A stretch of DNA of 64,000 nucleotides from Deltaproteobacteria bacterium (GCA_023954745.1 JAGSHC010000005.1:4550-68549); one strand, 5' to 3'; shown: positions 3,651 to 41,216, counted from the first letter of the stretch. Translations and numbers: made by a program. The notes: generated by a model not told the origin, from the letters alone.

Positions 3651-3674
3651 CCACCGACTCGCTCGGAGGGGCAC

Positions 3675-4145: not shown

Positions 4146-4151
4146 GCCCCC

Positions 4152-23198: not shown

Positions 23199-24674
23199 TC
23201 ACGGCGAGACGACCAGCGGGTCAGGCACGCCCGGAGCACCAGCAACCGCGGTGAAGCTGCTCGACGGGCCCACGACCCAGAACTGCCTCTCGGGGGACGC
23301 AATGGCGAGCTCCCGGTCCACACCGAGGCCCTGGGGGTCCCACAACAGCGCCAGGCGCACCCGGGGCTCGCCTGGAATCACCCGCACCACGCCATCGCCG
23401 GAGCCAGGCATCGTGCTGACGGAGAGGATGGGAAGCGGGGCGGCGAACTGCCCTCCCCCCGTTCCTCGGAGCATGTAGACCCGACCGTCGTCGTCGGCGC
23501 GCAGTCCCAGGAACAGGTCCGCGACGCCATCCCCGGTGCCATCCCCGAGGTCGATGGAGTCGTAGGCCATGGGCAGCACCGCGCGCACCACTCCGCCGCT
23601 CAGGCCACCGTTGCCATCGCCGATCCACAAGCGGCACTGCGCGGCCACGGCCTCTTCGGCGCAGATCAGGAGGTCCGAAGCCCCATCGAGGTTCACATCG
23701 ATCAGTCGGGGCGCGACGGCCCATCGCTCGCCTGCGGCCACCGCATCGATGGTGATGCTCGTAGTGCGTAGCTGGTACTCCCCGTCGCCTTCGCCGAGGT
23801 GCACGAAGATCGATCCCGCGCCTACGCTGTCGAGGAGCACGCTGACGAGATCCCCCGAACCATCGCCGTCCAGGTCTCCACCGGCGACGACCAGACTTCG
23901 ACTTCCCAAGGAGACCACCTCGTTGATGGGCCCGGTCCAGTCGCCCTCGCACGTCCGGGAGATGGACGCGACGTCGTCCGCATCGGGATCCGAGGGGTCC
24001 ACCTGCTGCCGCATCCATTCCGTCGCTCCGTCGCCGTCGAGGTCCACTGCGATGGCTGAGCCCACCACTCCGGAGGGGACCGGAGCCCCGAGGCCCTGAG
24101 GGTCACCCAGAGCCTCTCCGTCGACCGCCCAGACCCGCAGATCGCCTCCGGGGCCCGCGACGCCCACCCTCGGGGCGAGGTCGGCGGGGACCGGCTCGTC
24201 GGTGAGACCATCGCAGTCGTTGTCGACCCCATCGCACTCCTCGGCCAACTCCGGGGACACGTCGGCGCTCTCGTCGTCGCAGTCCCCTTCGCAGGGCCTC
24301 AGTCCATCGGTGTCGGAGTCGGACTCATCGTCTGGGACAAGCGCGTCGCAGTCGTTGTCGAGGCCATCGCAAAGCTCCGGGGCGCCGTCGAAGATCGTGG
24401 CGTCCTCGTCGTCGCAGTCAACGCAGTCGTGGGCCCCGTCCCCGTCGTCGTCGGCGAGCTCGCTGTCGTCGCCATCGACGAGGCCGTCGCAGTCGTTGTC
24501 CACCCCGTCGCAGACTTCGGGGAGACCGGGCGCGACCGCCGCGCTCGTGTCGTCGCAGTCTCCATCTGTCGGGAGCACGCCGTCCTGGTCACCGTCGATC
24601 GCCTCATCGGGATAGAACGCGTTCGGGGCACATCCCCCCAGAAGCGCGGAGAGCAGAAGGAGGACTCTGATCAT
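23199..24674 (-). CDS. Lipoprotein with MopE-like Cys-rich putative metal-binding repeats (CDGVDNDCDGxxDE) and C-terminal FG-GAP/VCBS-like repeats
   Basis: Lipobox LLSALLGGC. It has five or more copies of DxDxDGxxxxxDCDD...CDGxDNDCDG and several DLDGDGxxD Ca-binding-like repeats. It is translationally coupled (4-nt overlap) to the upstream paralog gene. Confidence 0.6.
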   Translation of the reverse strand: MIRVLLLLSALLGGCAPNAFYPDEAIDGDQDGVLPTDGDCDDTSAAVAPGLPEVCDGVDNDCDGLVDGDDSELADDDGDGAHDCVDCDDEDATIFDGAPELCDGLDNDCDALVPDDESDSDTDGLRPCEGDCDDESADVSPELAEECDGVDNDCDGLTDEPVPADLAPRVGVAGPGGDLRVWAVDGEALGDPQGLGAPVPSGVVGSAIAVDLDGDGATEWMRQQVDPSDPDADDVASISRTCEGDWTGPINEVVSLGSRSLVVAGGDLDGDGSGDLVSVLLDSVGAGSIFVHLGEGDGEYQLRTTSITIDAVAAGERWAVAPRLIDVNLDGASDLLICAEEAVAAQCRLWIGDGNGGLSGGVVRAVLPMAYDSIDLGDGTGDGVADLFLGLRADDDGRVYMLRGTGGGQFAAPLPILSVSTMPGSGDGVVRVIPGEPRVRLALLWDPQGLGVDRELAIASPERQFWVVGPSSSFTAVAGAPGVPDPLVVSP

Positions 24675-25912
24675 CGGACCCGGACCCCTACGTCGAACCC
24701 GCCGCCGGCCGTGAGATGCGGCTTCGCGTCACCGGCGCTGCGGGCACCCACCGGGGAGCTCTCCGACGCAAACGCGTACAGCGCGAGCACCGGTTGCACC
24801 GCCGCCCCGGGCTTCGCCCCCGCGATGCGAACGCCCAGCTCAGGCCCCTGCACAAGGTAGGCGGCCGGGCCGGCGTAGCCGTCGGGAAGCAAAGCAGCTG
24901 CAGCCCCGGCGCCCGCGAAGGACCACGCAAGGAGCGGTCCCAGAGCGATGGGGCCCGCAGGGAATGCAGCGGCGATCTCCAGCCGAACTCCAACCTGTCC
25001 TGCCGGAGGCGCACCTGACGCTCCCCGGAGTCGCTCGCCGCGAGTCACGCCCAACAGGAGCGCCGCGTCGAGGAGAAGCCGCTCGTTGGCGACTCCGAGC
25101 TGTGCCCCCACGAGAAACCTCGCGGAGGCCCCCGCGTTGCCCTGCTGCGCGAACCCCGCGCCTCCTGTCTGGATCATCAGCCCACCAGAGGGTGGCGGCG
25201 GCGCCACGACAGGCGAGGCCTTCTTGGGGGCGGGACTCCGAGCGGGGCGTCGCGTGCGGGCCTTGTCCTCCGACTTGCGCTCGCCATACACCCCCGAGCC
25301 CGACGATTCGACCGAGGGCCGAAGGTCCATCCGCGTCACGCCCTTGGCGACGACCTCGACGATGTGGGCGCCGACCCGATAGCTCCCCACGGGGAGGTAG
25401 ATGGAGGTGGATCCGTCCTCGAGCTCGCTCATTCTCTGGCGCGCGGCTTCGAACGCGCGCTTCAGCTCGGGGTCGAGGAGCGGGGTCGCCGGGGCCGGGC
25501 GAGTTGCCCCCGCCGCCGTGCCCCCGATGATGAGCACCTTGCCGAAACGGCTGGTGAGGAAGTCATGAAACTCCGCGAACTCGGGGTCGAGGCGCGGAGA
25601 GAGAGCCGCCGCCGTCTTGGCCGCCTCGACGGCCCCCGCCAGCTCGCCCAGCGAGTAGCGAGTGCGCGCGATCTGTTCGTGGAGCTCCGCCGCAGCCTGG
25701 CCCTCTGGCAGGAGAGCCGCGGCCTCGAACTCCGCGAGGGCCTGTCGCGCCTGACCCGACTGCAAAAAGAAGCGTCCCTGCGCCATGCGGTGGCCGAAGC
25801 TGCTCGCAGGGGTCGTCGTAGGCTCCTCCTCCTCGGCATGAGCCGAGCCTGGAACGAGCCCGAGGCACAGGGCGGCCAGCGCGAGGCTAGAAGCGGAGCG
25901 CGAGACCCACAT
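24671..25912 (-). CDS. Secreted protein: TPR-like helical N-domain plus Gly/Ala-rich C-domain (paralog 1)
   Basis: Signal peptide MWVSRSASSLALAALCLGLVPGSAHA. It shares the motifs FLQSGQARQALAEFEAA and LPVGSYRVGAHIVEV with the next gene. The start was chosen at the internal ATG, because the longer ORF has a junk-like S/R-rich N-terminus. Confidence 0.5.
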   Translation of the reverse strand: MWVSRSASSLALAALCLGLVPGSAHAEEEEPTTTPASSFGHRMAQGRFFLQSGQARQALAEFEAAALLPEGQAAAELHEQIARTRYSLGELAGAVEAAKTAAALSPRLDPEFAEFHDFLTSRFGKVLIIGGTAAGATRPAPATPLLDPELKRAFEAARQRMSELEDGSTSIYLPVGSYRVGAHIVEVVAKGVTRMDLRPSVESSGSGVYGERKSEDKARTRRPARSPAPKKASPVVAPPPPSGGLMIQTGGAGFAQQGNAGASARFLVGAQLGVANERLLLDAALLLGVTRGERLRGASGAPPAGQVGVRLEIAAAFPAGPIALGPLLAWSFAGAGAAAALLPDGYAGPAAYLVQGPELGVRIAGAKPGAAVQPVLALYAFASESSPVGARSAGDAKPHLTAGGGFDVGVRVR

Positions 25913-27152
25913 CGAGGCCACCTCCGATCCGCAGGAACTGCCGGGTGTCGAGGCCCACGAGCTCCGTGCCGAGTCCGGCGAGGAGGACTCCCTCGGCTCC
26001 AATGAAGCTGCCGCCGACCGCCTCGACCGACGCTCCGATACGAATCCCGACCCGCCGCGGGTCGCCGGCTGGGAGGATGAGCAGGTCGAGCCCGAGCAGT
26101 CCGCCGGCTCCCCCCGTGCCAAGGGCACACTCGCCCAGCCAGCCGTGCCCGGTGGCGGTCTGCAAGGTCTCGCAGCCGACCACCGCGGGGCCGAGGAGCC
26201 CGCCCAGGAACCCCAGGTGGGGGGTCAGCCATGCTCCTCCGCCCAGGCGCACGTCGAGACCCACGTCGAGAATGCCGACAATCTCTGCGCCCACCGACTG
26301 CCGGCCCGGGTTCGTGGGGGAGGTTGGGCTCACCGCGCGGGAGCCGGCCACGCGGGCGCGTCCCTGCACCCGCGCGGGACCCACGTGAACTCCGATGCCG
26401 AAGACCCCGCCCAGTCGCAAGGGAGAGGTGCCGACCGTGCCGCCGGGGATCCCGGTCAGCCCGACGTGGGCGCCCACGAAGAACTCTCGGGGCCCGCCCA
26501 AGGCGACGAAGCCCGCGTCGTCACCGCGCAATGCGCCGGTCTGGAACGGGACGTCCTCAGCGTCGAGCACCAGCGCGAAGGCTTCGCCCGCGGTCACCTC
26601 GAACTCGTGCGAGCCCAGCGAGTAGGTGCCGAAGGGCAGCCACACGGTGGGCTCGGTGAGTCCCTTCCGCCCAGTGCGTTCCACGAGGGCTGCGAGGGTC
26701 TCCTTCTGCTTCGGGTCGATGAGGAAGCCCGTGTGGGCGAGGTCCAGCGGGCGCGTTGGCAGCTCGCGGCCCTCCGGCGCGTACAACAGCAGGCGGCCGT
26801 AGGAGGAATAGAGACGATCCAGTTCAGCCTTTGCCTCACGCTGGGCTTCGTCGCCCAGTACCGAGGCCAGCTCCCACGCGTGGATTGCCAGGCCTACCCG
26901 GCCGGCCTTCTCAGCGGCATTGGCGAGCTTGCTGTGGCAAGGCCGTGAGACCTTGCCCTCCGCGGTGTCGCAGGCCTCCTCGAGGGAATCGGCCGCTTCG
27001 TCGAACTTCCCGAACTGGAACAGCAGGTCGGCCTGCCGACTGAGGAACTCGAAGGACTTCGGTTCCTCTTCCGTGGTCGATTGGGCGGTCGCTCCGTAGG
27101 GGGCCAGAGCCCACGCCAGGAAGCACACCGCGCTCAGGGCACGCAGGGTCAC
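25887..27152 (-). CDS. Secreted protein: TPR-like helical N-domain plus Gly-rich C-domain ending in Phe (paralog 2)
   Basis: A signal peptide, LLFQFGKFDEAADSLEEA, LPFGTYSLGSHEFEV, and a Gly-rich C-terminal half ending ...GLALRF (a C-terminal aromatic as in OM barrels). It lies 6 nt downstream of the short CpaF gene. Confidence 0.5.
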   Translation of the reverse strand: MTLRALSAVCFLAWALAPYGATAQSTTEEEPKSFEFLSRQADLLFQFGKFDEAADSLEEACDTAEGKVSRPCHSKLANAAEKAGRVGLAIHAWELASVLGDEAQREAKAELDRLYSSYGRLLLYAPEGRELPTRPLDLAHTGFLIDPKQKETLAALVERTGRKGLTEPTVWLPFGTYSLGSHEFEVTAGEAFALVLDAEDVPFQTGALRGDDAGFVALGGPREFFVGAHVGLTGIPGGTVGTSPLRLGGVFGIGVHVGPARVQGRARVAGSRAVSPTSPTNPGRQSVGAEIVGILDVGLDVRLGGGAWLTPHLGFLGGLLGPAVVGCETLQTATGHGWLGECALGTGGAGGLLGLDLLILPAGDPRRVGIRIGASVEAVGGSFIGAEGVLLAGLGTELVGLDTRQFLRIGGGLDVGLALRF

Positions 27153-27158: not shown

Positions 27159-28319
27159 TCAGGCCTCTTCGCTGGTCTTCGAGGCGCGCCGGCGATCCCG
27201 CTCGGCACGACGCGCGCGGGCCGCATCGAGCATCTCCTTGGGGAAGCGCAGCCCCGCGAGCTTGATCTGCTCGGCGAAGGACGGCAGACGGCCCGTCGGC
27301 TCCAGGCGTCCCAGGATCTTGCCGTCCTCGTCCTTGCCCTCGGCCTTGAACGTGAAGAGGTCTCGCACCTGGTACTGACCGTCCGCGAGCTCCAAAACCT
27401 CGGTGATGTGGGTGATCTTCCGGCTGCCGTCGTGGAAGCGGGCCTGCTGCACGACCACGTCGAGAGCCATGGCGATCTGACTTCGCAGCGCCCACAGGGG
27501 CAACTCCACGTCGCCCATGAGGCACAGCGTCTCGAGCCGGGACAGCGTCTCCATGGGCGTCGACGCGTGAGTCGTGGACATGGACCCCTTGTGGCCCGAG
27601 ACCATGGCCTGGATCATGTCCAGCGCCTCGCCGGAGCGGACCTCGCCGATGACCACCCGGTCGGGGCGCATCCGCATCGCTGAGCGGAAGAGGTTGCGAA
27701 TCGTGACGGCCCCCCTGCCCTGGCGGTCCGGCGGCCGAGACTCGTAGTAGAGGAGGTGCGGCTTCTGGAGCTGGAGCTCCGTGCTGTCCTCGATGACGAT
27801 GATTCGCTGGTCGTCGGGGATGAACGAGCTCATCACGTTCAGAAGGGAGGTCTTCCCCGAGCCTGTTCCTCCCGCGATGACGATGTTGCACTCGATCTTC
27901 ACGGCGGCGTCGAGGAACTCGGCCGCGGCGGGGGTCATGGACCCGAAGCCCAGCAGCTTCTCTACCGTCAGTGCTTCCCGGAAGAACTTGCGGATGGCGA
28001 TGCAGATGCCCTTGCGGGCGACGGGCGGCATCGTGATGTGCACGCGGCTGCCGTTGGGCAGGCGGGCGTCCAGCAAGGGGCTCTCCCAATCGATCACCCG
28101 CCCGACGTACTGGGCGATGTTCTTCGCGAGAGCAAACACGTGGTCCTCGTGGGCGAACTTCGCGTCCGTCAACTCGAGCTTCCCGCCCCGCTCCACAAAG
28201 ACCTCTTCGGGACCGTTGATGAGGATCTCAGAGACGGAGTTGTCGTCGAGGTGGTGCTGGATGGGCACGAGGTACAGCGCGAGAGTCTGCTCGAAGACGC
28301 TCTCGAGAGTGGCGGTCAT
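27159..28319 (-). CDS. CpaF/TadA-family secretion ATPase, minimal form without an N-terminal regulatory domain
   Basis: Walker A GGTGSGKTS, Asp box, Walker B RIIVIEDSTEL, and a His box GHKGSMSTTHA of the VirB11/CpaF family. Confidence 0.85.
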   Translation of the reverse strand: MTATLESVFEQTLALYLVPIQHHLDDNSVSEILINGPEEVFVERGGKLELTDAKFAHEDHVFALAKNIAQYVGRVIDWESPLLDARLPNGSRVHITMPPVARKGICIAIRKFFREALTVEKLLGFGSMTPAAAEFLDAAVKIECNIVIAGGTGSGKTSLLNVMSSFIPDDQRIIVIEDSTELQLQKPHLLYYESRPPDRQGRGAVTIRNLFRSAMRMRPDRVVIGEVRSGEALDMIQAMVSGHKGSMSTTHASTPMETLSRLETLCLMGDVELPLWALRSQIAMALDVVVQQARFHDGSRKITHITEVLELADGQYQVRDLFTFKAEGKDEDGKILGRLEPTGRLPSFAEQIKLAGLRFPKEMLDAARARRAERDRRRASKTSEEA

Positions 28320-28352: not shown

Positions 28353-29792
28353 TCAGTTGCCGAAGACAGAGCCGCCCTTTTTGCCCCGCATCAACTTGTC
28401 GAGGACCTTCTTCTGCTTGCGACCGAACTGATAACGCTCGTCTTCCTTGTCCGGGAAGATGCGCTGCAGCCGCTCCATCTCTTCGAGGGCTCGGTCGTAG
28501 TTTCCTGCGGACTTCTCCCGCACGTAGGCCAGCTTGAGACGGCGGAACTCCTGGTCGAGCAGACCCTCAGCCTCGGCGATCTTCCGGTCCATCTCGCTGG
28601 CGAAGGCCGGCCAGTTTTCCGGGGGCACGAGCCCGAGCTGGCCCTTGGAGCGCTTCATGAACTCCACAGAGGTCCACAGGTTCTCGTCCGCGATCTGGTA
28701 CTCGCGGAGGTACGTGGAGCCGATGCCAAAGAGCCGCTGGGCCTCGGCGATGATCTCCTGGTCCGTCCGGTCGTTGCGGGGCGGGAGGATGATCTCCTCG
28801 GGCGTCGGGGTCGTCGTGCCCGGGCCCGGCGCCACGGGCGCGGTGCTTGGCTGGGTCAGCGCATAGGCGAACGACAGCAAGATGACGACGGCGGCGCCAA
28901 CCAGCACGACGTTGCGGATGAGGGGGAGGTTCGGCGGAGCCTTCTTGCCCTTCCCCTTTCCGCGGCCCTTCTTCTTCCGCTTCTTCGCGGTGATCACACC
29001 GGAGGAAGACCTGCGCGGGCCGGGAGCGCCCGGGCCCGGGGCCCGGCCTGGCGTCCCCGGCATCCCTGCGGACGAGGGCATCCCGGGAGCGGGAGGCATC
29101 CCCATGGACGAGCGACCCATGTTGGGGGGCATCCCCATCTGGGAGGGCGGACCCTGGGGCGGAACCCCCGGCGGCAGGCCGAACTGCGAGGGCGGGCCCT
29201 GGGGGGGGCCGCCGCGCGGTGGCGGTGGCGGCGCACCGAGGTGCGCGGGGTGCTGGCCGGAGAGGTGCCCGTAGGTGCCGGTCCCGATTCCTCCTGGAGG
29301 GGGCCCGGGAGGAGGCCCGGGGGGCAGTCCTCCGAGGGGGCCGGGAGGGTGCGTGTCCTGGCCACCGTGGGTGGGGCCTTGCTTGACGACGGTCGCCTCA
29401 GCCCCCGGCTTGGGGAGGGGCGCGCCCGCGCGCGAGTCCATCGAGCTCCCGGCGAACGCCACCGTCGCTTCGGGGTCCTGCTTCGCCGCTCCCTCCCGAG
29501 GGATACGCACCCGCAGCGCGATATCGCAGAACGTGATCAAGTCCCCGTCCTGCACGTAGACCCGCTCGATGGGACGGTCATTGAGGTACGTGTGGTTGAC
29601 GGTGCCGAGGTTCTCGAGGACGAGCTGGTCGCCTTGCCAACTCATCTCACACTGCTGGCGGCTCACATGCGGAGAGGACACCTGGAGTTGGCACTGGGAA
29701 CCCCTGCCGACAAGGATCGTGTCCTCGCGGAGGGAATAGGTCTCGCCGACATCTGGGCCGGCGAGGATTTCGACCTGGATCAGTCGCGCCAA
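28353..29792 (-). CDS. FHA domain - PG-rich linker - polyLys - TM - periplasmic domain protein (YscD/PrgH-like topology)
   Basis: An FHA signature (ILVGRGSQCQLQVSSPHVSRQQCEM...LENLGTVNHTYLND), ~150 aa of P/G-rich low complexity, KKRKKKGRGKGKGKK, a TM LIRNVVLVGAAVVILLSFAYAL, and a ~160-aa C-terminal domain. The start is uncertain. I chose an in-frame TTG (L49 of the track ORF), because the upstream 48 codons look non-coding (S/R-rich) and this choice leaves a 73-nt gap to tadC. Confidence 0.6.
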   Translation of the reverse strand: MARLIQVEILAGPDVGETYSLREDTILVGRGSQCQLQVSSPHVSRQQCEMSWQGDQLVLENLGTVNHTYLNDRPIERVYVQDGDLITFCDIALRVRIPREGAAKQDPEATVAFAGSSMDSRAGAPLPKPGAEATVVKQGPTHGGQDTHPPGPLGGLPPGPPPGPPPGGIGTGTYGHLSGQHPAHLGAPPPPPRGGPPQGPPSQFGLPPGVPPQGPPSQMGMPPNMGRSSMGMPPAPGMPSSAGMPGTPGRAPGPGAPGPRRSSSGVITAKKRKKKGRGKGKGKKAPPNLPLIRNVVLVGAAVVILLSFAYALTQPSTAPVAPGPGTTTPTPEEIILPPRNDRTDQEIIAEAQRLFGIGSTYLREYQIADENLWTSVEFMKRSKGQLGLVPPENWPAFASEMDRKIAEAEGLLDQEFRRLKLAYVREKSAGNYDRALEEMERLQRIFPDKEDERYQFGRKQKKVLDKLMRGKKGGSVFGN

Positions 29793-29865
29793 ACTCGTTC
29801 TCGTTGCCTTCGAAGAGTACCAGTGTTCACGCGACCGACGGAAAGCCCGCCGGTGCGCGATCGAG

Positions 29866-30780
29866 CTAGAAGAGCTCGCCCTTCGCGGCTCGTACGATGA
29901 TGCCGCCGAACAGCGTGAGCAAGACCGCACCGACAATGAAGAGCAGCGGCATGATCATCTTGACCGGTGCCTCGCCCGCGAGCTTCTCGGCGCGCTGGCT
30001 CCGCTTGAGGCGGATCGCCTGGGCCTGAATCCGCAGGATGTTCGTCAGAGGAGTACCCATCTGCTCAGCCTGGACCACGGAACTCACCAGGCCTGAGACG
30101 TAGTCCGATGGGATGCGGTCCTTGAGATTGATCAGGGCCTCACGCCGGGTGGTGCCCATCTTCACTTCCTGAAGCACGTACCGCATCTCCTCCACGAGGG
30201 GGCTGTCCGTGGAGTCCTTGTTGACGATGCGCTCGAGCGAACTGTTGAAGTCGAGACCTGCGCCGACGGACAGCGCGAGCACGTCGAGCATGTACGGCAG
30301 GTCCTTGTTGATGGACGTGATCCGCGTCATCACCTGCTCGTCGAGGTACATCACGGGGAAGTAGGCGCCGAACATCGCCGCGACCATGCACAGCGGGATG
30401 CGGGGGCTGCCGGTGACGCTGGTGTTGAAGAAGAACGCCAGTCCAAAGAAGCTCAAGGCGCTCAGGACGCCGAAGGCGAGGTACTCGTCGGGGGTGAAGC
30501 CCCCCATGTAGCCCGCCCGGGCCAGCCGATCCCGCAGGCCGTTGCGCAGATTCGTGATGGGGAGCAGCTCGCCCCAGAACGTGAAGATCTTCAGCGTGCT
30601 GATGAGGATGCGGTAGATGGGCGACTGCGCCATCAACTGCCGGCGCTTGTTCATCAGGTACCCGCGCTCGGGCACCGTGCCCCGATACTCCTCGTCCGGG
30701 AAGAACCCGAGACCGAAGAGGAACACCGCACCAATGGCCAGGAGGCCAGCGACGATGCTCAGCAGGGTGCTTGTGGCCAT
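29866..30780 (-). CDS. TadC-like inner-membrane platform protein (T2SS F family)
   Basis: ~304 aa polytopic membrane protein with a GspF-like cytoplasmic domain, positioned next to tadB. Confidence 0.7.
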   Translation of the reverse strand: MATSTLLSIVAGLLAIGAVFLFGLGFFPDEEYRGTVPERGYLMNKRRQLMAQSPIYRILISTLKIFTFWGELLPITNLRNGLRDRLARAGYMGGFTPDEYLAFGVLSALSFFGLAFFFNTSVTGSPRIPLCMVAAMFGAYFPVMYLDEQVMTRITSINKDLPYMLDVLALSVGAGLDFNSSLERIVNKDSTDSPLVEEMRYVLQEVKMGTTRREALINLKDRIPSDYVSGLVSSVVQAEQMGTPLTNILRIQAQAIRLKRSQRAEKLAGEAPVKMIMPLLFIVGAVLLTLFGGIIVRAAKGELF

Positions 30781-30793
30781 CGACCTGGCTCTC

Positions 30794-31651
30794 CTAGACG
30801 TCCACCGAGACGATCTTGCGAATCATGAAGATCCCGACAATCTCGAAGAGGGCGATGAAGAAGAGGATGATCCAGCCGATGGGGTCCTCCCAGAGGGGCG
30901 AGACCATGAGCGGGTCGACCTTGTAGATGAGCACCGCCATGCCGACGGGCAGCGACCCGAGGACCCAGGCCTGCATGCGGCCCTGAGCGGTCATCGTCTC
31001 GATCTTGTCCTCGAGGCGGCGGATGTCCCGAATCGCCTCGGCGGTGTCCTCGAACACCTGGGGCAAGTTGCCACCGGCGACACGCGCGACCTGCACCGAC
31101 GTGATCACGAGGTCGAGGTTCTTGCTGCGGACCCGCTCGCCCATGTTGTTCATGGCTTCATCGAGCGTCAGGCCCAGCTTGTGCTCCTTGAGCATCAAGC
31201 CGAACTCCTGGGCGATGGGCGGCGCGGTGTTGTCCACGAGGATGCCGATGGCCTGCGGCAGGGTGAGGCCGGCGCGCAGAGAGTTCGACATGGAGATGAG
31301 CGCGTCGGGGATCTGATCTTCGAGCCGCTCCAGGCGCTGTCGCTTCGCCCGGGCGAGGCCGAGCCACGGGAACAGCCCCACCAGAATCGAGACGAGCACG
31401 CCGTTGGCCGGCCCGAGCAGGTAGCTCACGAAGATGAACAAGACCGTCGTGATCGCGATGTGCGTGTAGAAGTACTTCTTCGGGTCGGTGCGCGAGTAGA
31501 TCGCATCCAGCGCCCGGTGCAGCCGCTCCAGATAGGAGCGCTCGAAGCGCTTCCAGCCCGTGATCAGCTCGGGGCCGTTGAGCCAGGCGAGCAGAAACAC
31601 AATCCCGCCAATGGCGAGCCCGATGACGGTGACGATGAGGGACGCGTCCAT
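30794..31651 (-). CDS. TadB-like inner-membrane platform protein
   Basis: ~285 aa with an N-terminal TM, a cytoplasmic GspF-like domain and C-terminal TMs. It has a TAATG overlap with the upstream ATPase gene. Confidence 0.7.
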   Translation of the reverse strand: MDASLIVTVIGLAIGGIVFLLAWLNGPELITGWKRFERSYLERLHRALDAIYSRTDPKKYFYTHIAITTVLFIFVSYLLGPANGVLVSILVGLFPWLGLARAKRQRLERLEDQIPDALISMSNSLRAGLTLPQAIGILVDNTAPPIAQEFGLMLKEHKLGLTLDEAMNNMGERVRSKNLDLVITSVQVARVAGGNLPQVFEDTAEAIRDIRRLEDKIETMTAQGRMQAWVLGSLPVGMAVLIYKVDPLMVSPLWEDPIGWIILFFIALFEIVGIFMIRKIVSVDV

Positions 31652-33528
31652 TAGATGAAGCTCCCGTCGGCGATGATGCCGGAGTTGATGAGGTCCGGGA
31701 TGAAGCTCGGGATGTACCCGGTGAGCACCATTTCCCCGACGATCTTCCCGTTGTCATCGATGCCGCGCTGCTGGAACTTGAAGATGTCCTCGAGCCGAAG
31801 CCGCCCGTCGTCATCGAGGCCCACGCACTCGGTGACATGGGTCACCCGGCGGGTGCCGTCCGAGAAGCGCGACTGCTGCACCACCACATGAATGGCGGCG
31901 GCGATCTGCTCGCGGATTGCCTTTACCGGCAGGTCCATTCCCGCCATGAGCACCATGGTCTCGAGGCGGCTCATCATGTCGGTGGGGGTGTTCGCGTGGC
32001 CCGTAGTGAGGGAGCCGTCGTGACCGGTGTTCATGGCCTGGAGCATGTCCAGGGCCTCTCCCCCGCGGCACTCACCCACGACGATGCGGTCGGGGCGCAT
32101 GCGCAAGGAGTTCTTCACGAGGTCGCGGATCTCGTAGGCCCCCTTCCCTTCGAGGTTGGCGGGTCGGGTCTCGAGGCTGACCACATGGTCCTGAGGCAGT
32201 CGCAGCTCCGCGGCGTCCTCGATGGTGACGATGCGCTCCTTGTTGGGAATGAAGCTGCTCAGGCAGTTGAGCAGTGTCGTCTTCCCGGAGCCGGTGCCGC
32301 CAGAGATGATGATGTTCTTGTGTCCGAGTACGCACTTCTCGAGGAAGCTCGCAATCTGCTGGGTCACCGAGCCGAACCCCACCAAGTCCTGCATGGTGAG
32401 GGACTTCTTGCCGAACTTCCGGATCGTGATGCAGGGGCCCTTGATGGCCAGGGGCGGGATGATCGCGTTGACGCGCGAGCCGTCCTTGAGGCGGGCGTCC
32501 ACTAGCGGTGAACTCTCGTCGATGCGGCGCCCCAGGGGCGTGATGATGCGCTCGATGACCGCCAGGACCGCTTCGTGGCTCGTGAAGGTCTTCCCGGTGA
32601 ACTCGATGTTCCCCGCGCGCTCCACGTAGATCTGGTCCTTGTTGACGACCATGATCTCCGTGATGGAGTCGTCGTCGAGGAAGTCCTCGAGGGGGCCGAG
32701 GCCGAGGGCCTCGTTGAGGACCTCTTTGATGAGCAGCTCGCGGTCGAGGTCGGGCTCAATGTCCGCTTCGAGCTCGGCGATGATGTCGAAGAGGAGGTTC
32801 CGCGCACGCTCGCGAAGGTCCTCTTCGGCCACCTTGTCCATGTCGAGAGTCTTGAGGTCCAGGTACTGGAGCAGGCGGCGGTGGACGCGCCGCTTCAGGT
32901 CGACGGGAGCGGAACGAGCTCCCATCCAGTGGCCCGCGATCTGAGGGCCGTCTGCGTGGGGCTGGTGTCCAGCTGCGACCGGCGCCTGGCCCTGATGCAG
33001 GACGAGGGCCCCGTCGGCGTGGGCCTGCTGCTCGTAGTACTCGGCGGGATACTGCTGTTGCTGCTGGGCGTAGGCCTGGTCGTAGCCCTGCTGCTGCACC
33101 GTCGCCTGGTGGGCGGCCGCTCCGGAGTCGGCGGGAACCTGGCCGTGGGCCTGCTGCTGATAGTACTCCGCCGGATACTCGCCCTGGCCGGCCGCCGCCT
33201 GGGCCCGGTTGTACTCGTCCCATGCCTGGTGAAGCTGCGCTTCGGTGTAGACCGAGAGCACGACGTTGCCGATGCCCACGCGGTCACCCACGTTGAGGAT
33301 CTGCTTGCCGAACACCCGCTCGCCGTTGACGAACGTTCCGTTGGTGGACCGGTCTGTGAGGGTCACGGACTCACCGTTCACGAGGAACTCGGCGTGGTAA
33401 CGCGAGACCTCCATGTAGGGGAGGACGAGTTCGTTGCCGCCCTCACGCCCCGCGCGGATGTGGTCCGTGTCGAAGTCCGACTGGACCTCCCGCTGGCTCT
33501 CCGGATCCCGGTAGACGATGCGGATCAA
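31651..33528 (-). CDS. FHA domain :: CpaF/TadA ATPase fusion with a Gln/Tyr-rich linker
   Basis: An N-terminal FHA (NELVLPYMEVSRYHAEFLVNGESVTLTDRSTNGTFVNGERV), ~90 aa of Q/Y/A low complexity, then a full CpaF core (GGTGSGKTT, IVTIEDAAEL, GHDGSLTTGHA). Confidence 0.85.
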   Translation of the reverse strand: MIRIVYRDPESQREVQSDFDTDHIRAGREGGNELVLPYMEVSRYHAEFLVNGESVTLTDRSTNGTFVNGERVFGKQILNVGDRVGIGNVVLSVYTEAQLHQAWDEYNRAQAAAGQGEYPAEYYQQQAHGQVPADSGAAAHQATVQQQGYDQAYAQQQQQYPAEYYEQQAHADGALVLHQGQAPVAAGHQPHADGPQIAGHWMGARSAPVDLKRRVHRRLLQYLDLKTLDMDKVAEEDLRERARNLLFDIIAELEADIEPDLDRELLIKEVLNEALGLGPLEDFLDDDSITEIMVVNKDQIYVERAGNIEFTGKTFTSHEAVLAVIERIITPLGRRIDESSPLVDARLKDGSRVNAIIPPLAIKGPCITIRKFGKKSLTMQDLVGFGSVTQQIASFLEKCVLGHKNIIISGGTGSGKTTLLNCLSSFIPNKERIVTIEDAAELRLPQDHVVSLETRPANLEGKGAYEIRDLVKNSLRMRPDRIVVGECRGGEALDMLQAMNTGHDGSLTTGHANTPTDMMSRLETMVLMAGMDLPVKAIREQIAAAIHVVVQQSRFSDGTRRVTHVTECVGLDDDGRLRLEDIFKFQQRGIDDNGKIVGEMVLTGYIPSFIPDLINSGIIADGSFI

Positions 33529-33535: not shown

Positions 33536-34789
33536 CTACCACTTCGTCTCCGCCGCATCGTAGATGTCGAGCGTCTCGCGGATCTGCTTGCGCATCTGGC
33601 GACGGTCGGCGTCCAGGAGGACCGGGGTAAGTACGATGATCCCGTCGGTGTCGCCCTTCTGCCAGGAACGGCTGCCGAAGAGCACGCCGATGCCGGGAAT
33701 CTGGGAGAGGCCGGGGAGGCCGGTGATCTGACGCCCGTTGTCGCGTCGGAGGAAGCCGCTGAGCGCGAAGCTCTCGCCCTCGCGGAGCTGCACGTGCGCC
33801 GTGTGGTTCTGGCGGTTGATGGAGGGCACCACGCCGCCGAGCTCGAGCTCGCCGACCGTGCTGAACTCCACCGTGATCTTGAGGTCGATGTCCCCGTCGT
33901 CGTCGATGATGGGGAGCGCCTTCACGAGCAGACCCACGTCCCGCTCGAGGAACGTGCCCACGCCGGTGCCCTGAGCCACCGTCGAGAAGATCAGGGTCTT
34001 GCCGCGCTGGAAGGTCACCTCTTCGCCCGACACCGTCGTGAAGAAGTCCTTGTCGAGCACCCGGCGCACATCCGTGGTGGCGGTGAAGTCGTAGAGGTCG
34101 TCCGGGCGACGGAGGACGTTGCCGGCCTGATCGGTGATGTTTCCGATGCCGAACTGCACGTAGCTCAGGGTGTCCAGAACCAGCGAGATGGGCCCGTTGC
34201 CTGACCAGTCGATGCCGATGTCGTGGTCGCGGTTGCGGTTCACCTCGAGCACCTGGAAGTGCAGCTGGATCTGGGCCTTCCTGACGATGTCCCGCTCGTC
34301 GAGGATCACGAGGCTGTACACGTCCTTGTTGTTGGACGCGACGATCTCCTGCACCCGGGCGAAGTCGTCCCTCCGCTTGACCAGACCGTCGATGACCACC
34401 CTCTCGCCCGAGGTGAGGACCTCGACGCCCGGAATCTCCAGAAGGAGGGTCTCCACGTCGCGGCGCAGCCGCTCCACGTCGCCCAGGACGGTGATGTCGT
34501 AGTCGGTCTCGCCGACCTGCAGGCTGGAGTAGCCGGGACGCAGGGCGAAGATGACGATCTTGTCGCCGTCCTCGTGGCGCTTGGCCTCGATCACCTGGGG
34601 GTTGCCGACGCTGACGGTCTTGATGCGGCCGAGGAAGATCGTGATCGACTCGCCGACCCGCAAGACCTTCTCGATGCCAGCGTGCGCCTCCCCAGGCGTC
34701 GCCAACTGCACCGTCAGTGCCATCAACACGGCGATGAGCACCAGCCCGAGCCGCCGCGCTCCTCCTCCGAACTCGTTGTTCGCCTTCAA
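33536..34789 (-). CDS. Secretin CpaC/RcpA
   Basis: A signal peptide, N-domains and a C-terminal secretin domain (GLPGLSQIPGIGVLFGS...GIIVLTPVLLD). Confidence 0.8.
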   Translation of the reverse strand: MKANNEFGGGARRLGLVLIAVLMALTVQLATPGEAHAGIEKVLRVGESITIFLGRIKTVSVGNPQVIEAKRHEDGDKIVIFALRPGYSSLQVGETDYDITVLGDVERLRRDVETLLLEIPGVEVLTSGERVVIDGLVKRRDDFARVQEIVASNNKDVYSLVILDERDIVRKAQIQLHFQVLEVNRNRDHDIGIDWSGNGPISLVLDTLSYVQFGIGNITDQAGNVLRRPDDLYDFTATTDVRRVLDKDFFTTVSGEEVTFQRGKTLIFSTVAQGTGVGTFLERDVGLLVKALPIIDDDGDIDLKITVEFSTVGELELGGVVPSINRQNHTAHVQLREGESFALSGFLRRDNGRQITGLPGLSQIPGIGVLFGSRSWQKGDTDGIIVLTPVLLDADRRQMRKQIRETLDIYDAAETKW

Positions 34790-34818: not shown

Positions 34819-35679
34819 TCAGCGCCGGCGGCCTCCGGGCGTCAGGATGGTGATTCCCTCGTCGCGCTTCTTCTGGATTCTACGACGTTCCTTCGGCTGG
34901 AAGATGTCCGCGAAGTTCTTGCCACTGAGTTCCATCTCAGTGTTCACGTCTTCCTCGTTCCGCATGGTGATCGAAAGCTCGCCCCGGTCCTGGGCAAACA
35001 CGAGGAGTTCAGCCTCCTCCGGGGTGACGAGCACCGTCACGGTGTCGATCCTCACCCTACCCCCGCGGGCGTTTCCGCCCCCGGTGTCCGCGATGGCGCG
35101 GCCGGTGCCGAGCTGGGCGCCGACGGCGAGTACGGTCACGTTCTGAAGGAGGGTGACCGTCTCCACGTCCCCTTCCCCGGGCTTCTGGAAGGTGCCGAGA
35201 ATGTCGACGTGGTCCTTCGGCCGAAGCAGCCCACCGAAGCTGGTGACGCGGTCCACCGGCAGAGCCAGCGCACGCATCTTCTCCGAGATCACCCGGGAGA
35301 GCTTCGCCTCGCTCTGGGTCGAGGCGAGGTCGGTTGTGAGGATGGGGTCTCCCCGCTTGACGCTGTACGAGGTGGTCTGGCCGATGACGTCATCCGCCAG
35401 GCCCTTCTGCAGGTGGCGCGGCGGTAGGTAGTTCTGCGGGTACTCACGGGTCATGAGCATCGAGCGCTCCAGGACCGTGAAGGCAGGGACATCCTCCTTG
35501 GCGACCAGGATCGGCACCCGCTTGCCGGCGACACCGAGCTCTTCCTTGAGGTTCGCCTTGTAGAGCTGCATCAGCACGACTGCGAGCAGCGCGAGGATTC
35601 CGGAGAACAGCAGGACGATCTTACGATTCACGGTTGCCCTTCCGAGCGGGGGGAGCTGCCCCGCCTCGTCTCGCCGCAT
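34819..35679 (-). CDS. CpaB/RcpC Flp pilus assembly protein (SAF domain)
   Basis: An N-terminal TM, a SAF-like region and a C-terminal CpaB-type domain. It is adjacent to the secretin. Confidence 0.65.
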   Translation of the reverse strand: MRRDEAGQLPPLGRATVNRKIVLLFSGILALLAVVLMQLYKANLKEELGVAGKRVPILVAKEDVPAFTVLERSMLMTREYPQNYLPPRHLQKGLADDVIGQTTSYSVKRGDPILTTDLASTQSEAKLSRVISEKMRALALPVDRVTSFGGLLRPKDHVDILGTFQKPGEGDVETVTLLQNVTVLAVGAQLGTGRAIADTGGGNARGGRVRIDTVTVLVTPEEAELLVFAQDRGELSITMRNEEDVNTEMELSGKNFADIFQPKERRRIQKKRDEGITILTPGGRRR

Positions 35680-36871: not shown

Positions 36872-37468
36872 TCAGTACGAAGAGAGCGCGACGGCGGACC
36901 ACGCCATCAACGCGCCCTTGACGGCCATGATCTGGAGGTCGCCATAGGTCTGCTTCTTGTGCCACGTGCCACCCGACACGAAGTGCCGACTCCTCACGTG
37001 GGTGCCGCCAGGCAGCGTGTTGTCGAGGATGGAGTTGGGGGCATAGGTCGCGCCCACCTCGAAACCTCTCGTCTGGCTGGCGAACGAGAGCATGTTGCTC
37101 AGCGACGAGGCCATGTTCAGCGGGCCCGAGCTGGGGAAGCTCGAGTTCGCGGAGCTGGGGTTGGCCGCGGGGTCGAAGGGCGCCAACTCGACGTAGGTCG
37201 GGTTGTGGTCCGTCATCGGGTAGTACGCCTGGGCCCGGCTCATGATCTGGCTGTCTTCGAGGTCCGTCTCGGCGACGCTGGCGGTGGCGGTGGCCATGTA
37301 GCGCGCGGCCATGTGGCAAGTGAGCTTGAGCTCGTATGCCTTACCGAACCACAGGATGCCCTCGATCATCGCGAGCAGGACGAAGACCCAGATGACGAAC
37401 TCCGCCATCGCCTGTCCTCGCTGGCCCTTGCCATCCCGTGCGTCTCGGATTCGTTGAATGGAAAGCAT
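36872..37468 (-). CDS. TadE-like pseudopilin
   Basis: An N-terminal GQAMAEFVIWVFVLLAMIEG TadE motif (G-x4-EF). Confidence 0.6.
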   Translation of the reverse strand: MLSIQRIRDARDGKGQRGQAMAEFVIWVFVLLAMIEGILWFGKAYELKLTCHMAARYMATATASVAETDLEDSQIMSRAQAYYPMTDHNPTYVELAPFDPAANPSSANSSFPSSGPLNMASSLSNMLSFASQTRGFEVGATYAPNSILDNTLPGGTHVRSRHFVSGGTWHKKQTYGDLQIMAVKGALMAWSAVALSSY

Positions 37469-37477
37469 GTCCGTCTC

Positions 37478-38965
37478 CTAGTGCGCGATGACTGCGTCGA
37501 CGCCCGAGCCCGAGAGCGCGGTGAGGGAACCAACCAGGCCGCCCACGCCGCCGGGGGCGCCCTCGCTGGTGCTGCCGGCGCCCGGAATCCAGCCAGCGGC
37601 TGCGCTCGCGGTGTCCGAGCCCATGGTCACGGGGGCGAGGTGCGTGCGCCAGTGGGGGCTGAAGAGTCCGCCGTCACTGTGCGGGCTGTAGATCTGGGCC
37701 TGGGCGACAGTGATCATCCCGACCGTGTCGCCGTAGGTGTTCTGGAACACATCGGGGATGAACTTCGCGGCGATGTCGTCCGGCGTCTTGTAGGCGAATC
37801 CGTAGTAGTCACGCCGCTCTTCCCAGTCCTCCGCGAGGATGAACGGTTGGACGTTGGGGTTGCCCGAGTCCAGGAAGGCGAAGAAGGCTCCGAGGTAATA
37901 GAACGGGTTCGGGATGGAGAAGTTCTCGTCGTCGCACCAGAGGCACCACCCGGGGGCGTCCACCTCGAAGTTGACGGAGCTGGGCCCGAAGCTGCCGCCG
38001 CACATCACCGCGTACCTCGCCCACACCGCCATGATGAACATGACGTTGGTGAAGTGATACGGCGCCTTGCTGGCCCAGAATGCGTGATACGGAATCTGCA
38101 TCTCGCCCCAGAGCGGACCGCCCAGGCCCACCGCGGCGAGGATGTCCGACGCGATGTCCCGGAAGTCCCCCGCGTAGGAGAAGCCACTGATCTCGTCGAC
38201 AGCGGCTGCGAGCGACCCTCCCAGGCTGTACTGGATCTCGTTGTAGCCGCCAGCGTTCTCGCCGCTCAGCGTGCAGGAGCAGAGGTCTTCGAGCTCGCCC
38301 TGCTCTTCGGGGATCGAGGGCGGATACATGATCCCGAAGGCCGCGCCGTTCTTCATGGCGAGGCGTGCGCTCTCGATCTCGGCGATCCAGGGGAAGAGGT
38401 TGTCGACGTTCTCTTCGACGTCCGACAGGGTCTCCATGATGTCCCAGATGAAGTCCTCGTCGTCCTCTGTCTCCATGAGCACGCCCGGCAGCTGCAGGGT
38501 GTCGATGAAGGCGTCCACGGGAATCTGGAACTGGCCGGTCATGGCGGCGACTGCGGCCCAGAAGGCCTCGATGGCCGGGCTGAGGAGCAGCGCCGTCAAG
38601 GCAGTCCAGAACACGGCCTTGAGGTAGATCTCCTGGGCGAGGAGCATCGCCATGAAGATGTTCATCATGGAGTTGAGGTTCATCGCCCGGGCGATCCAGG
38701 TGCTCCCGGAGAGCACGGCTGCATCCGCCGCGGACTGCGCCTGCATCTTGTCGTGCAGCAGCGCCCCGCTGTTGATCACCATGAAGGTGAAGCAAGCGAG
38801 CAGGAACAGGATCAGCGCGATGTAGACGATGGACTGGCCGCCCTCGTCCCGGTGCACGTCGCTCAGTCGCGTGCGGGCACGCTCGAGCAGGCTGTGAAGT
38901 GATCGGGTCACGTCCATCTCCCTACATGTCCCAGAAGCCGCTGATCGGCGGGTCGCCGGTCTCAC
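37478..38965 (-). CDS. TadG-like protein (Tad_N pilus-assembly N-terminal domain)
   Basis: GGQSIVYIALILFLLACFTFMVINSGALLHDKMQAQSAADAAVLSGSTW resembles the TadG-like N-domain, followed by a large ~400-aa C-terminal domain. The start may be the internal ATG (MDVTRS) at ~38917. Confidence 0.5.
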   Translation of the reverse strand: MRPATRRSAASGTCREMDVTRSLHSLLERARTRLSDVHRDEGGQSIVYIALILFLLACFTFMVINSGALLHDKMQAQSAADAAVLSGSTWIARAMNLNSMMNIFMAMLLAQEIYLKAVFWTALTALLLSPAIEAFWAAVAAMTGQFQIPVDAFIDTLQLPGVLMETEDDEDFIWDIMETLSDVEENVDNLFPWIAEIESARLAMKNGAAFGIMYPPSIPEEQGELEDLCSCTLSGENAGGYNEIQYSLGGSLAAAVDEISGFSYAGDFRDIASDILAAVGLGGPLWGEMQIPYHAFWASKAPYHFTNVMFIMAVWARYAVMCGGSFGPSSVNFEVDAPGWCLWCDDENFSIPNPFYYLGAFFAFLDSGNPNVQPFILAEDWEERRDYYGFAYKTPDDIAAKFIPDVFQNTYGDTVGMITVAQAQIYSPHSDGGLFSPHWRTHLAPVTMGSDTASAAAGWIPGAGSTSEGAPGGVGGLVGSLTALSGSGVDAVIAH

Positions 38966-39929
38966 CCTCGAGGGGCAGGACGGCGTGGGCTCTAATCTCG
39001 GTGTACTGACCGGGAAGGTTCAAGCTGAAGAACGGCGGCAGCGACAGGAGTGACCAGTCGTCGCCGATGAAGCGGTTGACGAGCGGAATCGCCAGGTAGA
39101 AGCGGTGGCTCACGATGACGCCCACGTCGCTCTCCGTGGGCCAATCCCAGGTGGCGGTGCCGGAGACCTCGGTGCCCCCGCTCTCATCCGCCTTGTAGAG
39201 GGCGGCGCTCGTGGCGAAGGTGGAGTAGGCGTAGCGCTGCAGTGCGCTGTCTACGTACTCACCGGCGATGCCGAGGCCGCTCATCATCTGGCTGAAGGTC
39301 GAGAAGGCCGAGCTGATGATGTCGCCCACGAAGGGCAGGCCGTCGAGCACCACGCTCGCTCGGGGCGAGATGGGCACGCAGGCCATGGCGGCGGCCTGGT
39401 TCACCTTGTCGTACTTGTCACCGCCGTCGACGTTGATGCTGTGCTTCGGCTCTCCGCCCACTTCGCTGGGGATGTAGACGATGGCGGCGCGCGCGGCGGA
39501 GAAGGCGGCGTAGGTGACGACGTTCTTCGCCTGGTACATGAGCGCGAGCTGCATGAGGATGAGCGTCGTGATGAGCACGATGGGGAAGCTGATGGCGAAC
39601 TCGGTCATCGCCTGACCGCGGGTCCCCAGGGAGAGGCTGCGCCGTGCCCGGGCGCTCAGGAAGAAGCCCGCCGTCGCCTTCGCGAGGACCCAGGCCATCT
39701 TCCCGCCTGCGACGAGCGCGGCGGCGGCCATGAGGCCGAAGAGCATGATGTCGGCGTTGTAGAGGGGCTGCACCAGAGGCGTCGCGGCGTCGTAGGCTGT
39801 GGCCATGCCGCTCCCGAGGAGCGCGACGCTCTCCCGGCCCCAGGTGGTGCCGCCGGACCAGCTCGCGAGACCCAAGGAGAGGGCGGCGAAGCCAGTGGCC
39901 GACAGGGCGATGCGTGTGTGAGGAGTCAT
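38922..39929 (-). CDS. TadE/TadF-like pseudopilin with an N-terminal extension
   Basis: GQAMTEFAISFPIVLITTLILMQ motif. The start is ambiguous: ATG at 39929 (MTPHTRI, with two extra TMs) or ATG at 39698 (MAWVLAK, the canonical length). Confidence 0.5.
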   Translation of the reverse strand: MTPHTRIALSATGFAALSLGLASWSGGTTWGRESVALLGSGMATAYDAATPLVQPLYNADIMLFGLMAAAALVAGGKMAWVLAKATAGFFLSARARRSLSLGTRGQAMTEFAISFPIVLITTLILMQLALMYQAKNVVTYAAFSAARAAIVYIPSEVGGEPKHSINVDGGDKYDKVNQAAAMACVPISPRASVVLDGLPFVGDIISSAFSTFSQMMSGLGIAGEYVDSALQRYAYSTFATSAALYKADESGGTEVSGTATWDWPTESDVGVIVSHRFYLAIPLVNRFIGDDWSLLSLPPFFSLNLPGQYTEIRAHAVLPLEGETGDPPISGFWDM

Positions 39930-39943
39930 CTCTGCGCTCCGTC

Positions 39944-40684: not shown

Positions 40685-40903
40685 TTACAGGTTGGAGTCG
40701 ACGTTGTCGATCTCTCCGTCGGCCGTCTCGAACAGGCCCTTGATCTTGCCGCCGAAGGACACGGCGATGGCGATGCAGACCACGGCGATGGCGACGAGGA
40801 TGATGACGTACTCGGTCATGCCCTGGCCGCGCTCGTCGCTGTGGAGGCGGGCGAAGGCGTTCTTGGCGGAGTCGGCGACGATGGCGAGGTTGCGAGCGAT
40901 CAT
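40685..40903 (-). CDS. Flp-family type IVb pilin
   Basis: Leader ...HSDERGQG followed by MTEYVIILVAIAVVCIAIAV (the Flp motif, G then xxxxEY, and a hydrophobic helix); 72 aa. Confidence 0.75.
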   Translation of the reverse strand: MIARNLAIVADSAKNAFARLHSDERGQGMTEYVIILVAIAVVCIAIAVSFGGKIKGLFETADGEIDNVDSNL

Positions 40904-40973
40904 TTGGGTGTCTCCTTGAGGTCGGTGGCGTTCATGTAGGGAGCGCGGCTCCCCCGGTTGTTGGTTTCGAGGA

Positions 40974-41159: not shown

Positions 41160-41216
41160 GGTCGAGGCTTCTCCCGCTCGATGCCTCGCGTTCAATCGTC
41201 GCGGCGGTCCGAGCAA

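Follow-up and report, generated by a model that had tools for sequence, protein, structure and literature searches.

A probable KilF-type FHA::CpaF motor ATPase in a Kil-like Tad pilus cluster of a Myxococcota-like bacterium

The window analysed here is the whole stretch of 64,000 nucleotides taken from a Deltaproteobacteria bacterium (GCA_023954745.1, JAGSHC010000005.1:4550-68549). It contains a cluster of Tad pilus genes, all on the minus strand, whose main motor ATPase is a CpaF protein carrying an FHA domain at its N-terminus (FHA::CpaF). The gene lies at positions 31651-33528 as a single intact open reading frame (ORF) of 625 residues, with a TTG start codon 8 nt past the stop of the upstream secretin gene, and the N-terminus given by this start, MIRIVYRDPESQREV, agrees with the consensus of its homologues. 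An initial annotation of this DNA, made from the sequence alone, had described an N-terminal FHA domain joined to a complete CpaF core in the main ATPase of a Tad cluster, and Pfam matches, alignment to CpaF and the cluster itself all bear this description out. Alongside the gene are those for TadB and TadC, RcpC/CpaB, a secretin, a prepilin peptidase and Flp pilins, which is the gene context of a CpaF/TadA ATPase.

The FHA domain forms residues 1-95 (33244-33528) and is followed by a helix at residues 96-112 (33193-33243), a disordered linker made largely of Gln, Ala, Gly, Tyr and His at residues 113-203 (32920-33192), the three-helix region of CpaF N-terminal domain 1 (NTD1) at residues 209-275 (32704-32904), and finally NTD2 and the RecA-like C-terminal domain (CTD) at residues 276-625 (31654-32703). 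Pfam places the FHA domain at residues 25-87 (E 1.6e-15; PF00498, 57.8 bits against a gathering threshold of 20.7) and T2SSE at residues 275-552 (E 5.7e-60), and a phmmer comparison with the PDB aligns residues 225-605 with Caulobacter CpaF at E 5e-117. The Walker A motif GTGSGKTT (411-418, with K416), the Walker B residue E486 and the His box H503/H511 are intact and fall in invariant columns of the alignment. An AlphaFold2 model, run with a 70-sequence alignment, has a mean predicted local distance difference test score (pLDDT) of 78. It gives an FHA beta-sandwich over residues 1-95 at a pLDDT of ~95, the adjoining helix at 82-92, values below 50 over residues 115-202, further helices at 209-222, 235-252 and 263-275, and then an alpha/beta NTD2 and the RecA-like CTD. 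Together with the phmmer alignment this secondary structure reproduces the NTD1, NTD2 and CTD architecture of CpaF/TadA. The NCBIfam model TIGR03819, for the TadA-family conjugal-transfer-associated ATPase, scores 334.4 bits, under its trusted cut-off of 373.15; this is no argument against membership of the CpaF family, since TIGR03819 covers a narrower subfamily.

The initial annotation had named separate FHA and cpaF genes in close relatives as the sign that the fusion was an artefact. The fused gene is present in every relative at 50-95% identity to the window protein, and these come from independent assemblies. The best 120 matches among 5.8 billion proteins are nearly all single proteins of 533-647 residues with both PF00498 and PF00437, and more than 110 homologue clusters, with assemblies from NCBI, JGI, ENA and Logan, show the same single-ORF architecture. 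Fused genes are called in a locus from Archangium gephyra (L081) and in two loci from independent metagenomes (L082 and L083), the last two encoding a protein 89% identical to that of the window and keeping ~20 neighbouring genes in the same order. The GC content at third codon positions (GC3) is 0.92, 0.83 and 0.91 over the FHA domain, the linker and the core, and these uniformly high values indicate one continuous coding frame. The architecture is not a novel one, as it has been published for KilF and is widespread, occurring in 29 of the 83 loci that we fetched and scanned with a hidden Markov model built from the FHA columns.

Within the FHA domain the residues of the phosphothreonine (pThr) pocket, G27, R28, S42, H45, N63 and G64, are invariant over 70 homologues down to ~50% identity. 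The GR...SRYHA motif is found as G27 R28 and S42 R43 Y44 H45 A46, and the canonical pThr contacts are all present, these being GR in the b3-b4 loop, SxxH in b4-b5 and N(G)T in b6-b7. The closest solved FHA domain is FHA-1 of Rv1747 (6cah, E 7e-10), and the pocket residues align with those of Rv1747, GarA and OdhI. This invariant pocket makes it plausible that the domain reads phosphothreonine. The helix directly behind the domain (residues 96-112, EAQLHQAWDEYNRAQAA) is predicted with confidence and kept in the closest clade as EEQLQAAWDEYNRAQAA; it may help the FHA module to dimerise, or cap it.

The linker has an unusual composition relative to the rest of the protein. Residues 96-215 contain 26 Ala, 24 Gln, 11 Gly, 9 Tyr and 8 His among 120, against 3% Gln and 1.6% Tyr in the remaining 505 residues, and the linker proper (113-203) contains 21 Gln, 19 Ala, 11 Gly, 8 Tyr and 7 His with Lys and Arg absent. 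Nine Tyr fall within 60 linker residues, the charged fraction is low at 0.09, and there is one Asn and a sole Thr, T143. The low-complexity string quoted in the initial annotation, QQQGYDQAYAQQQQQYPAEYYEQQAH, is found at residues 145-170, and both the linker's length of ~90 residues and its Q/Y/A character were described correctly, the first agreeing with the span of low pLDDT and the second, along with disorder, confirmed by composition and the AlphaFold2 model. The term "prion-like" is unsupported. The classical Michelitsch-Weissman criterion for a Q/N-rich region is at least 30 Gln plus Asn per 80-residue window, and the linker peaks at 21 in the window starting at residue 110. Disorder and Tyr richness would fit a prion-like or condensate-forming region but are not diagnostic of one.

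Short motifs are conserved in this disordered, Tyr-rich stretch. The sequence Y-P-A-E-Y-Y-Q-Q-Q-A-Y/H occurs in 1-2 copies across the ~45 closest homologue clusters, whose cores are 80-96% identical, and is kept in about 44 of the 46; over the same ~45 clusters the linker spans 67-123 residues and the flanks of the motif are divergent. In the window protein, copy 1 (YPAEYYQQQAH) lies at residues 118-128 (33145-33177) and copy 2 (YPAEYYEQQAH) at residues 160-170 (33019-33051). The columns Y118, P119, A120, E121, Y123, Q124, Q125 and A127 are conserved in 28-37 of 44 clade members. No further YPAEYY motif is found in a six-frame translation of the 64-kb window. A recent tandem duplication at the DNA level was considered as the source of the two copies and rejected, as only a trivial 12-bp array is present and the synonymous sites differ.

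Between the two copies lies the block T143-V-Q-Q-Q-G-Y-D (33079-33102), which holds the only Thr of the linker. A T-x-Q-Q-x-x-Y-D block is seen in 11 of the 13 closest homologues, and judging from the alignments it is within these 13 that conservation of T143 can be treated as reliable. A MAFFT alignment places Thr in the T143 column in 29 of 44 sequences, with an ambiguous alignment to the farther homologues. We therefore dropped the idea of a phospho-acceptor Thr conserved clade-wide, since the TNALVP/TALVP elements of the farther homologues may instead match DGALVLH (172-178) of the window protein, which is Thr-free.

In Caulobacter crescentus, the disordered region that precedes NTD1 of CpaF is called NTD0 (residues 1-79); it varies between species and is dispensable for pilus extension, and its loss lowers retraction (Hohl et al. 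2024, PMC11300603). As this NTD0 is likewise disordered, the linker described here is an enlarged CpaF NTD0 with an FHA domain attached at its far end. The initial annotation had taken the linker as an unusual trait of this ATPase, which does not hold, given that a Q/Y-rich linker with the motif is shared by ~45 homologue clusters and corresponds to NTD0. In Archangium-type KilF the linker is acidic; it has a core, PPE-E-E-[Y/F]-Y-E-E-E, that is related to the motif, and RMPASLASALAK is conserved in it. The Archangium-, Cystobacter- and Hyalangium-type KilF linkers (P0071-P0120) share T-R-T-A-P-P-E-E-E-[Y/F]-Y-E-E-E and ARMPASLASALAKNKKRVDPR just ahead of NTD1, and the latter could be a counterpart of the CpaF H0 helix, which has itself been proposed to gate the nucleotide pocket. 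Other relatives have linkers of Ala, Gly and Pro without Tyr, or linkers of only 22 residues.

The rest of the cluster can be followed in the direction of transcription. It opens with two Flp-type pilins (40974-41216 and 40685-40903, together 40685-41216) that carry a G/xMTEY motif and whose L082 orthologue matches Flp_Fap, followed by a prepilin peptidase of the Peptidase_A24 family (39944-40495), three TadE/TadG-like minor pilins (38922-40001, 37478-38965 and 36872-37468, together 36872-40001) and an unknown gene. Next are an RcpC/CpaB homologue (34819-35679) and a short secretin of 417 residues (33536-34789), in which Pfam finds pil_N and Secretin domains and no Secretin_N. Beyond FHA::CpaF are the platform proteins TadB (30794-31651) and TadC (29866-30780), spanning 29866-31651. 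They are followed by an FHA protein anchored in the membrane, the short second T2SSE ATPase, a TPR protein (25887-27152), another unknown gene and a MopE/FG-GAP protein. On none of the ORFs of the cluster does Pfam report a ParA/MinD-type match that would indicate TadZ/CpaE.

The membrane-anchored FHA protein (28353-29936) begins with an FHA domain, which is followed by a long Pro/Gly-rich linker (PPGPPPGPPPGG...), a Lys-rich juxtamembrane segment, one transmembrane helix at residues 343-361 and a periplasmic domain of ~165 residues. In topology it is similar to YscD/PrgH or GltG, and M. xanthus MXAN_4649, found beside kilH, is a protein that it resembles. The start of this ORF overlaps tadC and has probably been annotated too far upstream. 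The second ATPase (27159-28319) is a CpaF-like protein of 386 residues consisting of NTD2 and CTD only, with no FHA domain, disordered region or NTD1. It is 49% identical to the NTD2 and CTD of FHA::CpaF with Walker A and B intact, and it is conserved in L001, L012, L082 and L083. This protein could be a dedicated retraction motor or an auxiliary one.

At the end of the cluster, just before rnc, lies a protein with a MopE-type metal-binding motif and FG-GAP repeats (23199-24674, minus strand), which occupies the same place in L082 and L083 and, by virtue of this conserved position, may be secreted or exposed on the surface in connection with the pilus system. The cluster is surrounded by the housekeeping genes bamA, lpxB, lexA, bamB, der, era, rnc, mnmA and glmM. 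A tRNA-Ala (CGC) at 15408-15483 on the plus strand, between lexA and an unannotated ORF, is the sole Rfam/ARAGORN match in the window.

Two Ser/Thr kinases of 1034 residues (49794-52898) and 737 residues (52895-55108), together at 49794-55108 on the minus strand, are the candidate upstream signal. Each has one predicted transmembrane helix, and the nearer ends 16.3 kb upstream of the ATPase start. An overlap of 4 nt joins the two genes, and another of the same length joins them to a downstream ORF of 509 residues (48268-49797) that is Pfam-negative. The larger kinase has a stretch of ~150 residues of poly-Ser/Asp/Gly outside the membrane (~690-830), and the smaller has an extremely basic run, RKPKRRPKRARKRPTKRRKTKGRGGKRRTTPKRRRKG, right before its transmembrane helix. 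The initial annotation had connected these kinases with control of the pilus motor. The kinases are real and lie where it placed them, ~16 kb upstream; the link itself is one of proximity, and unrelated genes intervene. Myxobacterial genomes hold on the order of a hundred Ser/Thr kinases, so proximity over 16 kb is weak evidence, and regulation of the ATPase by these two kinases is possible.

Relatives differ in the position of such kinases. In L001, L005 and L081 the ATPase has no kinase gene at a distance of less than 10 kb. In L012, a Deltaproteobacteria metagenome-assembled genome (MAG) with a 61%-identical protein, two Ser/Thr kinases and a TPR gene (420-5683) lie 5-9 kb upstream of FHA::CpaF. 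A single unrelated gene (UPF0047) stands there between the kinase group and the prepilin peptidase, and L012 is the only relative we fetched with kinases near the cluster.

A scan of genome contigs, useful as a census, picked up above all the ultra-conserved core motif DMLQAMNT and with it many CpaFs without an FHA domain; M. xanthus KilF is not among its matches. Carriers of FHA::CpaF among the 83 fetched loci include Acidithiobacillus isolates, Quisquiliibacterium, several Burkholderiales and Gammaproteobacteria MAGs, Lentisphaeria and one Anaerolineales MAG. The loci from non-predatory lineages are L018, L019, L021, L006, L008, L011, L015, L028, L029, L033, L038, L020, L072 and L073. The distribution is thus broader than the range of "predatory delta-proteobacteria" reported for Kil-like systems. 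Any automatic inference from the architecture to predation is weakened by its occurrence far outside the predatory Myxococcota and Bdellovibrionota. About nine CpaF loci of Bdellovibrionales, Oligoflexia and Omnitrophota (L007, L010, L013, L014, L024, L031, L036, L043 and L080) have no FHA domain and carry instead an N-terminal extension of ~300 residues, probably a TadZ::TadA fusion as in Bdellovibrio. Fusion of a regulatory module to the N-terminus of CpaF is thus common, and its FHA form also occurs outside predators.

The core of the window ATPase is 65% identical to that of the Archangium ATPase of L081, against 53-60% to CpaFs without an FHA domain. In a neighbour-joining ordering of the cores, made with no bootstrap, the FHA-bearing ATPases come together, and the window protein falls with L082, L083, L001, L012 and L005 beside the Archangium group. 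Through L001, L005 and L012, sequence relationships place the host bacterium as Myxococcota-like. The gene order in Archangium gephyra L081 (peptidase, secretin, FHA::ATPase, FHA/TPR protein) is that of KilA-KilC-KilF-KilD, and it is through this syntenic orthologue, rather than the M. xanthus sequence, that the comparison with KilF was made.

We consider it likely, with a probability of roughly 0.7, that the protein is the KilF-type motor of a Kil-like Tad (type IVc) pilus machine, gated by its FHA domain, in an uncultured Myxococcota-type bacterium. Features of the Kil system found here are the N-terminal FHA domain on the motor ATPase, an additional FHA protein in the cluster (28353-29936; one here and several in M. 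xanthus), and the absence of TadZ/CpaE together with a short secretin lacking N0, as judged by Pfam. By homology, the C-terminal 415 residues, a complete CpaF/TadA, would form a hexamer under the TadB/TadC platform and drive polymerisation of Flp pilins, and possibly also their depolymerisation, through the short secretin. The FHA domain would be a pThr reader on a flexible leash, the leash being the enlarged and clade-specific NTD0, and by docking the motor onto a partner phosphorylated on Thr it would place motor recruitment and pilus assembly under the control of Ser/Thr-kinase signalling. Such a partner might be the juxtamembrane region of a kinase, a component of the machine or the linker's own Thr143. 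The YPAEYYQQQA[Y/H] motifs are probably short elements for partner binding or self-association. A docking and phospho-signalling role of this kind has previously been proposed for the FHA proteins of Myxococcus Kil (Seef et al. 2021; PMC8460266).

Several observations weigh against this interpretation. The M. xanthus Kil genes are in two clusters, and the system has been described with a single ATPase and with TadG absent (Seef et al. 2021; PMC8460266); the window system is one consolidated cluster with a second T2SSE ATPase (27159-28319) and a Tad/TadG-like gene (37478-38965). Neither a kinase nor a PP2C phosphatase is found inside the Tad cluster among the window ORFs scanned, and no PP2C is found among the scanned ORFs of the whole 64-kb window, and an Opp-type ABC transporter, a PD40 protein and a DUF192 gene separate the kinases from the cluster. 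Some FHA-like domains, those of YscD/PrgH, work without phosphate, and the FHA region here also draws a weaker Pfam match to Yop-YscD_cpl (E 4.5e-10, 40.1 bits). The AlphaFold2 model has no confident docking of the linker or its motif onto the FHA or ATPase domain, which leaves autoinhibition in cis by the linker without structural support, and we rejected that mechanism. That the motor depends on pThr, which kinase and ligand serve it, and whether clustering or predation is involved are matters of inference.

The strongest competing explanation, which we regard as possible though clearly second to a signalling role, is that the Q/Y/A stretch is a passive tether, a drifted NTD0 whose composition has no function and which acts as a flexible spacer letting the FHA domain reach its ligand. 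The low pLDDT throughout the stretch is consistent with a spacer, as is the wide variation among relatives, whose linkers may be 22 residues long, acidic and rich in Glu, Asp and Tyr, built of Ala, Gly and Pro without Tyr, or rich in Gln and Tyr, and the dispensability of CpaF NTD0 for extension points the same way. However, a functionless spacer does not account for a motif that about 44 of the 46 closest clusters keep between diverging flanks, nor for the similar E[Y/F]YEE core of Archangium-type KilF. Tyr codons are AT-rich, so that Tyr enrichment runs against the 66% GC bias, and in Caulobacter retraction is reduced by loss of NTD0.

It is unlikely that the fusion acts, like some other FHA proteins, as a phospho-switchable driver of condensates or clusters, in which each hexamer would present six FHA domains and six Tyr-rich linkers with a phosphorylatable Thr, and multivalent FHA-pThr and Tyr "sticker" contacts would seed condensate-like motor clusters at the envelope. 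The idea of condensate-like clustering, raised in the initial annotation, is a reasonable one given two precedents: the FHA domains and the disordered linker of Rv1747, which is phosphorylated on Thr by Ser/Thr protein kinases (STPKs), phase-separate or cluster under STPK control, and T6SS Fha proteins, which combine an FHA domain with an intrinsically disordered region (IDR), are reported to form condensates that start type VI secretion system (T6SS) machine assembly. Rv1747 FHA-1 is also the best solved match to the domain described here, the nine Tyr in 60 residues with no Lys or Arg and little charge would suit sticker contacts, the lone Thr block is kept in the closest homologues, and KilF forms bright, dynamic clusters at prey contacts (Seef et al. 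2021, PMC8460266; later work). Set against this are the Q+N peak below the prion-like threshold, a linker that is Ala-rich rather than Ser/Gly-rich, related ATPases that function with 22-residue or acidic linkers, the ambiguous alignment on which Thr conservation hangs, and the fact that machine assembly alone could explain the KilF clusters.

In its most specific form, which stands at slightly longer odds again, the FHA domain, the T143 block and the YPAEYYQQQAY repeats would together be a kinase-switchable, multivalent self-association module that nucleates clusters of the Tad/Kil motor at contact sites. If true, this would be a motor-intrinsic, fused counterpart of phase separation by Rv1747 and T6SS Fha, and could explain how Kil is assembled on demand at prey contacts.

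We think it quite improbable that the FHA fold is a phospho-independent scaffold that serves as a structural ring or as an adaptor, in the manner of the FHA-like cytoplasmic domains of YscD/PrgH in the type III secretion system, with no pThr reading. The Yop-YscD_cpl match suggests such a role, and the M. xanthus neighbour MXAN_4649 is annotated as PrgH-like and the cluster holds no kinase. But R28, S42, H45 and N63 are all present and invariant, and the FHA model outscores the YscD model by 57.8 to 40.1 bits, so that judged from its sequence the pocket favours a true pThr reader. That an assembly or frameshift artefact joined separate FHA and cpaF genes has next to no probability, there being no point in its support, and was ruled out by the single frame with uniform GC3, the conserved N-terminus and the recurrence of the architecture in the homologue clusters and fetched loci.

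This locus bears on the question of how a killing pilus of the Kil/Tad type is switched on only at prey contact. It offers no new principle, but it does offer comparative handles, namely a Kil-like system in a single cluster and an invariant pocket that defines point mutants. The YPAEYYQQQA[Y/H] motif, with its relation to E[Y/F]YEE, and the lone Thr are candidate partner-binding or phospho-acceptor sites, and L012, with kinases beside its cluster, is also useful. New here are a Q/Y linker specific to the clade, which carries a conserved motif and a Thr block, and the gathering of a Kil-like system with two ATPases in one cluster.

The closest known system is the Kil apparatus of M. xanthus, a Tad-like killing machine whose ATPase KilF is "fused to an N-terminal FHA domain" and for which a contact-triggered phospho-signalling cascade was proposed by analogy with the T6SS (Seef et al. 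2021, eLife; PMC8460266). Later work found that polymerisation of the KilP pilus requires KilF, and a 2025 review still describes the FHA proteins as "promising candidates", with no kinase or ligand identified. KilF (MXAN_3107) and the window protein both have an N-terminal FHA domain, a disordered Tyr-containing linker and a CpaF core, and both systems also encode a short secretin together with a prepilin peptidase, TadB/C, CpaB and Flp pilins, have FHA proteins besides the motor, and lack TadZ. They differ in the linker, which in KilF is acidic and rich in Glu, Asp and Tyr with a C-terminal RMPASLASALAK and here is rich in Gln, Ala and Tyr with YPAEYYQQQAY motifs. The FHA domain is only ~37% identical to that of KilF, and the core ~65% identical to that of the syntenic Archangium KilF. 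Given the differences from M. xanthus Kil, a predatory function cannot be assumed for the window system.

Caulobacter CpaF (PDB 8rkd, 8rjf and 9e24) has the same NTD1, NTD2 and RecA-like CTD, preceded by a disordered NTD0, but it has no FHA domain, its NTD0 is 79 residues long without Q/Y motifs, and it relies on TadZ/CpaE for polar placement. In M. tuberculosis Rv1747, too, a disordered linker ties an FHA domain to an NTPase machine associated with the membrane; there, however, two FHA domains sit on an ABC transporter, whereas here each protomer of a hexameric secretion ATPase would carry one.

The T6SS scaffold Fha/TagH, working with PpkA-PppA, is similar in that a protein with an FHA domain and an IDR starts assembly of a contact-triggered envelope weapon downstream of a membrane Ser/Thr kinase, and the window ATPase has a weak match to TIGR03354. 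In the T6SS, however, Fha is a separate scaffold unfused to the motor, and the kinase is encoded within the T6SS cluster. Finally, Bdellovibrio TadZA is also the Tad ATPase of a predator and carries an N-terminal module for localisation or regulation on a flexible linker needed for partner binding (bioRxiv 10.64898/2026.07.08.737194), but the module fused there is a ParA/MinD-like TadZ that binds RomR, and not an FHA domain.

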